From sequence record PV340574.1: a DNA stretch of 48,138 nucleotides; one strand, written 5' to 3'. The position numbers and the translations under genes are program-made. This document shows positions 15,732-17,805 of the stretch, in pieces (positions within the stretch are counted from its first letter, which is position 1; each line of letters starts with the position of its first letter). The stretch is from Escherichia phage PhiR63_2. Below the pieces are notes generated by a model. The model was not told where the DNA came from, ran no database searches, and saw only the letters and a program-made list of their open reading frames with translations.

Positions 15732-15750
15732 TATGCAATTGTTTACTAAA

Positions 15751-15781
15751 AGTTATTAAAAATGGGGCGTGGAAACGCCCC
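15751..15781 (-). terminator. Candidate terminator for nmpC (minus strand)
   Basis: Stem GGGGCGT / ACGCCCC with GGAA loop, followed on the minus strand by ATTTTTAATAA. Confidence 0.4.
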
Positions 15782-15866
15782 AAAATAAAGGGTAATATAT
15801 AACAGAAGGTTTATATAGTAAGAAGCAAGGTAGTGCTTCTAAAGGAAGTGGCTTGAGGGCTCCACT

Positions 15867-15908
15867 TATATGTTGCGGAGGCAAAGCCTCCCGCAACATA
15901 TCTTTTTC
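15867..15908 (+). terminator. Candidate plus-strand terminator blocking read-through from Q into nmpC antisense
   Basis: ~13-bp imperfect stem TATGTTGCGGAGG / CCTCCCGCAACATA with CAAAG loop, followed by TCTTTTT. Confidence 0.4.
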
Positions 15909-15918
15909 GTAAGTCAGA

Positions 15919-17001
15919 TTAGAACTGATAAACCAGACCTACAGCGACGATGTCGTCGGTATCAATACCAGCTGTTTTGGTAAACTTACTATCGTCAATT
16001 AAGTTGATTTTGTAATCAACAAAAGTGGACATGTTTTTATTAAAGTAGTAAGTAGCACCGACATCGACATACTTGACTAAGTCTCGGTCACCATGAACAC
16101 CAAGGTCTTTACCTTTTGACTGAAGGTAAGCAACAGATGGACGCAGACCGAAGTCAAACTGATATTGTGCTACTGCTTCAAAGTTTTGTGCTTTGTTTGC
16201 AATATGGTTATTACCAAAAACGGTCATATTCTGAGTTTCAGAATATGTGGTAGCCAGATAGATATTGTTCGCATCATATTTCAGGCCTGCAGCCCATACT
16301 TCCGCATTTTTGCCGGAGGCATTGAATTTGCTCTTACCATAGGCGACCTGACCGTCAGTGCGATCTGATTTAGCATAGGTTGCACCCACGCCGAATCCTT
16401 CATACTCATAAGTAGTGGAGAAACCGAAACCATCACCATTGGCTTCAGTTACGTCAGTGCGGTCATTTTTACCCTGATACTGAGCAGCAAAGTTCAGGCC
16501 ATCGACCAGACCAAAGAAGTCGTTGTTACGATAAGTTGCAACACCAGTAGTGCGACCAGTCATGAACACATCTGTTTGGGTCCAGGTATCACCACCGAAT
16601 TCTGGCAGAACGTCAGTCCACGCACCGATGTCGTATGCTACACCGTAGTTACGGCCGTAATCGATTGAGCCGTAATCACCAAATTTCAGGCCTGCAAATG
16701 CAAGACGGGTTTTGTCTTTGGAAGAACCTTGAGATTCAGCACGGTTGCCTTTGAATTCATATTCCCACTGACCGAAACCAGTCAGTTGATCGTTGATTTG
16801 GGTTTCACCTTTGAAGCCAAGACGGGCATAAGTAGTATCACCATCATCTGCATCATTAGAGGAGAAGTAGTGCTTGGCATTAACTTTCCCGTATAGATCC
16901 AGCTTGTTACTGTCTTTATTATAAATTTCAGCTGCCTGAGCAGACATCGCCATCAGTACTGATGCAGCTACAGCAGAAATTGCCACTGTTAATTTTTTCA
17001 T
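15919..17001 (-). CDS. nmpC: Outer-membrane porin, NmpC/Lc family (360 aa, intact)
   Basis: Signal peptide [24 protein letters not shown]-terminal ...VGLVYQF; matches the E. coli NmpC/OmpD porin family. Between Q and the lysis genes, opposite strand. Confidence 0.9.
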
Positions 17002-17427
17002 TGTACGCCCTTTTTTTGAACTATTATTAAAAAATGATGTCACTGCGCGATAAATATTCATCTAATCAATGTGATTATTTCAAGATGTAAGTTTTAGTTT
17101 CTCATTTAATTTGTGAAGTAGATCTCTATTTTTATCTGAACCTTTTCTATCTAATCCTATTCATGGCTCTTGTCTGAACAAAAATAAATCTATTAGCTAA
17201 TTTATATTAATGGCACTTATTTATAAGTGCTCTATAATTCTTTAGCTTAATTTAAACAAACTAAAAATAACATCGGAAATTATTAACTGGTTATTTGTTG
17301 AAGTTTTCTTATGCATTTGTGGTGGTGTTTTGAACACTCGGTGGCATTCTCACAAATATCATTTAGTAGTTTACGTACGTAAAAAATTGGTTATGCTGTT
17401 AAGAGTGGTTACTTCGTCACACAGCTT

Positions 17428-17456
17428 AAACCCGCCGTCGAGCGGGTTTTTCCATT
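17428..17456 (+). terminator. Candidate tR' terminator of the short late leader transcript
   Basis: Stem AAACCCGC / GCGGGTTT with CGTCGA loop followed by TTCCATTTTTT, about 130 bp upstream of the holin gene. Confidence 0.45.
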
Positions 17457-17589
17457 TTTTGAGTCTCGATATTAGCTGATAACCCAATACCTGAGTTATT
17501 CACTGACTCCGAATCTGTTACGTTTCTGCCTTTATTGCGATACGTAGTATCCCCTTAATTTACACCCGCTTTGTCTGCGAGGTGGGGTT

Positions 17590-17805
17590 ATGAAATCCAT
17601 GGATAAGTTAACAACGGGTGTCGCCTATGGTACCTCAGCAGGTAGTGCCGGGTACTGGTTTTTACAGTTGCTCGATAAAGTCACGCCCTCACAGTGGGCG
17701 GCAATAGGTGTGCTGGGTAGCCTGGTATTTGGCCTGCTGACGTACCTGACAAACCTTTATTTCAAGATTAAAGAAGATAAGCGCAAGGCTGCGAGAGGTG
17801 AATAA
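17590..17805 (+). CDS. S: Holin (phage 21 S-type, class II / pinholin-like)
   Basis: [26 protein letters not shown]... matches S21/EssD-type holins; two TM segments. Confidence 0.9.

Follow-up and report, generated by a model that had tools for sequence, protein, structure and literature searches.

Escherichia phage PhiR63_2 (PV340574.1), whose entire 48,138-nucleotide sequence is referred to here as the window, carries an antisense outer-membrane porin gene between the late antiterminator gene Q and the lysis genes. This position raises the question of how such a gene could be expressed and how the late genes could be transcribed around it. Our reading, which we hold at a probability of roughly 0.88, is that the porin gene nmpC/lc is a self-contained moron placed between Q and the late promoter pR' of a lambdoid prophage. 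The gene would be transcribed leftward from a putative start site in its own AT-rich region at about 17002–17210, and a signal peptide of 23 residues would direct export of its product, which would assemble into a 16-strand barrel. No phage promoter would be needed, so that a lysogen could make the porin, which would add to or partly replace OmpC and OmpF and alter both permeability and the surface presented to phages, colicins and antibody. The late operon would be untouched by the insertion, with pR', the Q-loading region and the terminator tR' directly before the holin gene S, and Q would act in trans on RNA polymerase starting at pR'. Only rightward early transcription past Q could then run antisense through the porin gene, and a hairpin at 15868–15908 is placed where it could stop RNA polymerase unmodified by N.

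Identity, intactness and spread of the porin gene

The interval from the Q stop codon to the start of the phage-21-type holin gene (15732–17590) is occupied by a single minus-strand open reading frame (ORF) at 15919–17001, which begins MKKLTV and encodes a 360-amino acid precursor with a 23-amino acid signal peptide and a mature protein running from AEIYNK to YQF. Disabling changes, which the first-pass annotation of this DNA had named as the observation that would speak against an intact porin, were looked for: the ORF has no frameshifts and no internal stops, and the Pfam profile Porin_1 covers it end to end, residues 29–360 corresponding to profile positions 1–337 of 337 (E = 1.9e-151; 504.7 bits against a cut-off of 23.7). 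The NCBIfam OmpC subfamily model gives 521.2 bits, above its cut-off of 484, and residues 1–343 of mature OmpC (2xe2) align with residues 24–360 of the porin from first to last, ending in VYQF. The protein combines a signal peptide, a porin-like mature N-terminus and a C-terminal aromatic residue, the signal for beta-barrel assembly. By family membership, the predicted product is an OmpC-family general-diffusion porin. Alignments to OmpC and OmpK structures score ~450–460 bits, and a similarity of ~450 bits to solved trimeric porins suggests that the product would form a trimeric outer-membrane diffusion channel.

By its sequence, the gene at 15919–17001 is the already known nmpC/lc prophage porin gene of the 1980s literature (Blasband et al. 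1986, as cited in PMC11677980). When NmpC of the K-12 prophage DLP12 is compared with the insertion sequence IS5 removed, 331 of 365 aligned columns are identical to the window porin (90.7%). The N-terminal 148 residues are the same in both, and the substitutions and indels that separate the 360-amino acid window protein from the 365-amino acid K-12 protein fall into about five blocks. The CFT073 protein WP_000737271.1 is identical to the window porin, and ABU 83972 annotates the same protein. The exact protein is found on more than 1000 contigs, and some sources name it 'outer membrane porin protein LC' or 'porin OmpC'; the latter label comes from the NCBI naming pipeline because the porin passes the OmpC subfamily model. 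The identification as an intact NmpC/Lc-type porin, made earlier from the letters alone, is borne out by the K-12 comparison and by these database names. Some pipelines call a 380-amino acid form from an upstream in-frame ATG (17061, 20 codons earlier), and the reference annotations (ABU 83972, CFT073) all use the 360-amino acid form.

Variation among porin homologues was assessed in an IMG/VR scan for the pR' motif, which yielded at least 120 loci, is not a census and underlies the counts of IMG/VR homologues and alleles given here. Among the loci listed, 71 of 81 homologues run full length with the gene intact, and locus ends account for most of the incomplete ones. The 12 distinct alleles among these loci have 52 variable columns, which lie in blocks (182–187, 216–231, 263–267, 302–312 and 335–347) spaced approximately like the external loops of a 16-strand porin; this clustering suggests diversification of the surface loops. 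At one locus (L077), the porin match covers residues 1–342 and stops well inside the contig, truncated near its 3' end, which may reflect an insertion sequence comparable to the IS5 in K-12 nmpC.

The first late gene, the phage-21-type holin gene S (17590–17805, plus strand; Phage_holin_2_1, E = 2e-35), is annotated essD in identical genomes. It is followed by the lysozyme gene R (17805–18302, plus strand; Phage_lysozyme, E = 1.3e-45), annotated rrrD in the same genomes, then by Rz and by antisense bor/iss. The order quuD, porin (minus strand), essD, rrrD, rzpD and bor/iss (minus strand) is the same in K-12 DLP12, ABU 83972 and CFT073. The ORF and profile coordinates, together with the synteny of K-12 DLP12 and ABU 83972, confirm the antisense placement between Q and the lysis cassette.

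The prevalence of the arrangement was estimated with the 2.6-kb Q–porin–holin stretch (15300–17900) as a query, at a coverage of at least 80%, against 5426 complete E. coli genomes, 2392 of which carry it. The stretch has 421 records at 99% identity or above, and many phylogroup-B2 E. coli among the matches listed are 100% identical (e.g., ABU 83972, IHE3034 and APEC IMT5155). It is also present in 35 phage records, with a propagation host given for some (e.g., PhiR57_1 on ECOR13). In ABU 83972 and CFT073, the stretch belongs to a lambda-like prophage adjoining icd. The arrangement is an ordinary one, and the gene, its position and its orientation were already known. B2 strains of uropathogenic or avian pathogenic type (CFT073, ABU 83972, IHE3034) have the same allele, and the gene would make a textbook case of lysogenic conversion, the prophage supplying its host with an extra outer-membrane porin. 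Such a porin can change how readily nutrients and antibiotics enter, how well the cell tolerates heat, and how phages, colicins and antibodies recognize it. Past the prophage end, the window contains the chromosomal sitABCD iron/manganese transporter operon (42620–46069, minus strand), as in CFT073; on this ground it reads as a chromosome segment of a B2-type E. coli and not as a phage record.

Late promoter and cargo block

The Q gene (15348–15731, plus strand) encodes a 127-amino acid protein of the QuuD type, in the Q933W/H-19B family, which matches Phage_antitermQ over its full length (E = 6.9e-54) and is annotated quuD in identical genomes. It shares 81% amino acid identity with VT2-Sakai Q over residues 1–120, after which the tails diverge, and its DNA is 75–77% identical to the genes of the 144-amino acid Q proteins of 933W, VT2-Sakai and H-19B. 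The match to the Q21 structures 6p18 and 6jnx is weak (36 bits). Transfer of the Q-binding element (QBE) from Q21 was dropped, Q being only distantly related to Q21.

Within the spacer between the porin gene and the holin gene, only 17367–17451 resembles 933W-type Shiga toxin (Stx) phages. This stretch is 78% identical to a segment of VT2-Sakai, phi345 and SC370 annotated as promoter, Q-utilization (qut) site and terminator, which in these phages overlaps the 3' terminus of the Q gene. Positions 17370–17397 align base for base with the 28-bp 'putative late promoter' annotated in these three phages, which places pR' by homology on the plus strand, with a −35 hexamer TTTACG (17370–17375), a 16-bp spacer and a −10 hexamer TATGCT (17392–17397). 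In the VT2-Sakai annotation (locus L003), the promoter is at 704–731, the 'putative Q-utilization' site at 745–752, 13 bp downstream of the −10 hexamer, and the terminator at 764–786. The corresponding part of the window contains, at the start of the predicted late transcript, the block TAAGAGTGGTTAC (17400–17412, plus strand), a candidate Q-loading or sigma-dependent pause region that is identical in the window, K-12 and the 933W-type phages despite differing surroundings. A tR'-like intrinsic terminator follows (17428–17462, plus strand), with a stem at 17428–17449 and then TTTTTCCATTTTTT, recognized by both the terminator scan and Stx-phage homology. Its stem is invariant relative to VT2-Sakai, phi345 and SC370, while the loop differs, and in the terminator scan it is the sole plus-strand terminator-like site between pR' and S.

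The segment from pR' to tR' is invariant in five porin-bearing alleles (the window, K-12, ev099, PhiR70_1 and Lambda_4C10). These comparisons support a placement of pR' and tR' at 17370–17462, on the far side of the porin gene and before S. The earlier proposal that the porin gene separates Q from the late promoter therefore agrees with the alignment of 17370–17449 to the annotated pR', qut and terminator of three Stx phages. With the porin block upstream of pR', Q-modified late transcription would consequently never cross the porin gene. The homology-based placement of pR' and tR' downstream of the porin appears to be new here. PMC7918800 cites reports of control of the DLP12 lysis cassette by a Q-like protein.

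Several further observations concern the same spacer. A plus-strand promoter-like site at 17210–17238 (ATGGCA-17-TATAAT) was considered as pR' and set aside: it is situated where the spacer is least conserved, has an allele-variable −35 hexamer and has no Stx-phage homologue. The distal Stx leader that gives the 74-nt StxS RNA has no counterpart in the window, the homology being limited to the 5' part (17370–17462 against 704–995 of L003), and a short RNA from the pR' of the window would be ~55 nt. A search of the whole window against Rfam at gathering thresholds gave no match within 15300–17900. In the leader between tR' and S, ev099 and Lambda_4C10 share with the window the 17-bp CTGCCTTTATTGCGATA at 17533–17549, which K-12 DLP12 and PhiR70_1 lack.

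The borders of the inserted material can be read from the same comparisons. The homology of Q to 933W-type phages and to Lambda_4B5 ends at about 15680–15707 (codon 120), and that of pR' begins at 17367; between them lies a porin moron block of ~1.66 kb (15708–17366). The block has a G+C content of 39.2%, and the region upstream of the porin gene (17002–17369) has 27.7%, compared with 49.8% for the whole window. VT2-Sakai, phi345 and SC370, where pR' overlaps the end of Q, represent empty-site relatives. Among the 120 IMG/VR loci listed, Q abuts pR' in 20, a gap of 1.5–1.75 kb with an antisense porin gene is present in 70, other cargo separates Q from pR' in 14, and no Q was found in 16. The other cargo is mostly a plus-strand ORF6N-domain gene (186–239 amino acids) and once a DnaD_N-like gene; in each of these loci (L028, L052, L055, L058, L060, L076, L092, L098, L100, L103, L110, L111, L123 and L129), the Q alignment stops at residue 120 and the pR' motif lies beyond the cargo. 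Lambda_4B5 has an antisense lipocalin gene, Blc, after a related Q, and the pR' motif was not found in the 5.3 kb of this phage examined. That the same breakpoint after codon 120 of Q adjoins different kinds of cargo appears, at the level of sequence, to be a modestly new observation. The pR'-like region of SfII is preceded by two hypothetical genes in antisense orientation.

Porin transcription and the hairpins beside Q

The candidate promoter and regulatory region of the porin gene (17002–17210, minus strand) is AT-rich and near-invariant in the five alleles, and the homologous K-12 region is active; the adjoining 17210–17295 is the most variable stretch of the spacer. The best −35/−10 candidate on the minus strand is TTGAAA (17083–17078), separated by 18 bp from GAATAT (17059–17054), and a CRP-like site, TGTGAAGTAGATCTCT, is found at 17112–17127; both are weak matches to consensus. 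The first-pass annotation had assigned the whole of 17002–17400 to the porin gene as its AT-rich upstream region. This holds for 17002–17369, whereas 17370–17400 belongs to the plus-strand late promoter. In K-12, the −199 to −1 region of nmpC is an active promoter that drives ins5A of IS5 (PMC11677980). Together with the empty-site relatives, the lower G+C content and the terminator of its own, this activity supports the description of the locus as a moron.

K-12 promoter activity and the detection of NmpC in CFT073, which encodes an identical protein, indirectly suggest that the porin would be expressed from the prophage in a lysogen. The CFT073 gene in question is c1560, which we take to be the counterpart of the window porin gene from its position (~40 genes before sitA). 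NmpC (c1560) is present in the CFT073 proteome and is raised in urine (PMC2680622), and both its RNA and its protein are more abundant at 37 °C than at 23 °C (PMC12890032). The latter source also cites a link between NmpC and heat resistance in strain AW1.7.

The 187-bp spacer between Q and the porin gene contains two stable, conserved hairpins. Hairpin A (15782–15763, minus strand) is a candidate intrinsic terminator of the porin transcript: the terminator scan reports TGGGGCGTTTCCACGCCCCA followed by TTTTTAATAA, with a T-tail extending to about 15753, and the fold has an energy of −14.8 kcal/mol (z = −3.9), its tail on the plus strand being A-rich. The stem is kept in K-12, ev099, PhiR70_1 and Lambda_4C10, with changes in the loop only. 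The porin transcript probably ends at this hairpin, and the terminator earlier attributed to the porin gene was recovered by scan and folding alike as a canonical minus-strand element.

Hairpin B is terminator-like on the plus strand (15868–15901, with a T-run to 15908) and lies 10 nt past the porin stop codon. On this strand, the stem is followed by CTTTTTCG, the fold has an energy of −22.6 kcal/mol (z = −3.3), and 0 of 200 shuffled sequences were as stable. The minus-strand fold reaches −25.2 kcal/mol (z = −4.3), and the tails differ, with CUUUUUCG on the plus strand and AAGUGGAG, which contains no U-run, on the minus strand. Natural variants alter a bulged position only, and the plus-strand T-run (4–5 T) is kept in five alleles. 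In K-12, an rrnB terminator added to the quuD/nmpC spacer had no effect, which its authors explained by intrinsic terminators already being there. The plus-strand hairpin noted in the first-pass annotation is a real element with a T-tail on that strand only; the suggestion that it halts transcription running on from Q is plausible on structural grounds and fits the K-12 result. Polymerase modified by N, as in lambda, is expected to ignore hairpin B.

Hairpin B could instead form the 3' end or a stabilizer of the porin mRNA, or one half of a bidirectional terminator, with no part in guarding against read-through. We regard this account as possible, although the odds are somewhat against it. The short distance from the porin stop codon and the greater stability on the minus strand favor it, as does GAAAAAG, an A-run ahead of the hairpin on that strand, of the kind found in bidirectional terminators; moreover, pR is repressed in a lysogen, which leaves little rightward transcription to stop. 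The minus-strand stem nevertheless runs into a tail free of U-runs, with the canonical minus-strand terminator 85 nt further on, and the conserved T-run belongs to the plus strand. The two roles of hairpin B are compatible with each other, and it may also stabilize the porin mRNA. A more radical alternative would place the late promoter directly after Q (15732–15860), as in lambda, with late transcription running antisense through the porin gene and hairpin B serving as tR'. Such an order would match the textbook cassette, in which pR' directly follows Q (bioRxiv 10.1101/651190); hairpin B is a good plus-strand terminator ~135 nt past Q, and a weak TGGAAA-17-TAATAT match can be seen by eye at ~15771–15799. 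However, the promoter scan lists no plus-strand promoter in 15732–15918, and the spacer is unlike any phage pR', whereas 17370–17449 is homologous to the pR' and terminator of phages with an 81%-identical Q. The shared end of Q homology at residue 120 in the 14 listed loci with other cargo, with the motif beyond that cargo, and in Lambda_4B5 points the same way. With neither a scan match nor pR' similarity, a late promoter at 15732–15918 was rejected, and we consider this arrangement exceedingly improbable.

It is also decidedly unlikely, in our view, that the porin gene is a silent relic, intact in appearance yet unexpressed and without effect on the lysogen. K-12 nmpC is indeed a pseudogene broken by IS5, the upstream region with its 27.7% G+C is of the AT-rich kind often silenced by H-NS, and no strong consensus promoter was found by either the sigma-70 or the relaxed scan. 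A relic, however, would be hard to reconcile with an ORF that is intact here and full-length in 71 of the 81 IMG/VR homologues listed, or with a promoter region better conserved than the adjoining spacer and able, in K-12, to drive the IS5 transposase. CFT073, which encodes the identical protein and whose NmpC is detected and responds to urine and temperature, argues against it as well, and so does the grouping of amino acid variation into about five blocks at regular intervals, the pattern expected from selection on exposed loops. The self-contained moron between Q and pR' remains our preferred reading, and several points weigh against it. The simple sigma-70 scan of the minus strand at 17002–17400 found no strong promoter, and relaxed rules gave only 8/12 matches. 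CFT073 has a second nmpC-like gene, c2348, and c1560 is presumably the right choice by its position. The pR', qut and terminator labels in the Stx-phage records are themselves 'putative'. The StxS RNA of Stx phages ends at a functional tR' that is the second and more distal of the terminators, ~247 nt from pR' (PMC7547250), and the hairpin at 17428–17449 may be leaky or have another role. Finally, the activity of the DLP12 essD promoter has been attributed in part to RpoE, as cited in PMC7918800.

The two hairpins form a crossed layout, with the rightward terminator nearer the porin gene and the leftward one nearer Q. The transcripts of Q and of the porin gene would therefore overlap by ~150 nt. 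This crossed-terminator layout, as predicted from the sequence, appears to be a modest novelty. A broader proposal can be built on it, which we think unlikely as a whole: the point after Q codon 120 would serve phages with a 933W/QuuD-type Q as a dedicated site for exchangeable cargo (empty, or filled by an antisense porin gene or by a plus-strand ORF6N or DnaD_N-like gene), and the crossed terminators would also allow rightward early transcription, once induction has begun, to silence the making of porin through antisense pairing or through colliding polymerases.

Related systems and other features of the window

The closest counterpart is nmpC of K-12 DLP12 (qsr'), which occupies the same slot in the same orientation (quuD, nmpC on the minus strand, essD), with flanks 91–99% identical to those of the window. 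The two share the promoter region and both hairpins, and their pR'/tR' segment is invariant. K-12 nmpC carries IS5 close to the 3' end, and the copy in the window is intact; the window prophage is a nearly complete lambda-like genome at icd, while DLP12 is a remnant at argU. The lc gene of phage PA-2, encoding the porin Lc ('protein 2'), is a phage-borne lysogenic-conversion gene expressed from the prophage and is reported to be nmpC in its intact form (Blasband et al. 1986, as cited in PMC11677980). The window porin is likened to it by label, through the database name 'porin protein LC' carried by the exact window protein. Expression of Lc reportedly lowers OmpC and blocks re-infection by PA-2. 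By analogy, the window porin might change the availability of phage receptors.

The Stx phages 933W, VT2-Sakai and H-19B share with the window the −35 hexamer TTTACG, the 16-bp spacer, TAAGAGTGGTTAC and the first terminator stem. They have a 144-amino acid Q, a pR' that overlaps its end, and cargo (tRNAs, stx) downstream of pR'/tR'; the Q of the window, in contrast, has 127 amino acids and ends in another tail, and here the antisense cargo, 1.66 kb long, lies upstream of pR'. OmpC, OmpF and PhoE of E. coli and OmpK36 and OmpK37 of Klebsiella belong to the same family as the window porin and have the same full-length architecture, with the AEIYNK start and the YQF end. The window porin is a prophage-borne paralogue, whereas chromosomal OmpC is encoded at the ompC locus. 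Among known morons, bor/iss and lom are likewise autonomous genes for outer-membrane proteins among the late genes, either opposite in orientation or transcribed independently. They lie inside the late operon and belong to other protein families, unlike the porin gene with its slot upstream of pR'.

A further antisense moron for an outer-membrane protein, the bor gene of the window (18791–19087, minus strand), lies after Rz and carries the annotation iss (increased serum survival) in identical genomes. The J gene (36347–39829) lacks one C after 39525 relative to the otherwise identical J of CFT073, and its product has 1090 instead of 1160 amino acids and is without the receptor-binding C-terminus. 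This break reflects either an adsorption-defective prophage or a sequencing error. A comparison with lambda J, with OmpC as receptor in view, found a receptor-binding C-terminus unlike that of lambda and frameshifted in the window. A small ORF at 19511–19891 (plus strand), which follows bor, encodes a TonB C-terminal domain and bears the label 'TonB family protein' in the annotations of ABU 83972 and CFT073. Two Rfam families score above their gathering thresholds elsewhere in the window: the Hfq-binding small RNA STnc490 in the ren/ninB region (12356–12479, plus strand; 146 bits) and the lambda cIII thermoregulator element (5212–5270, minus strand; 88.5 bits).

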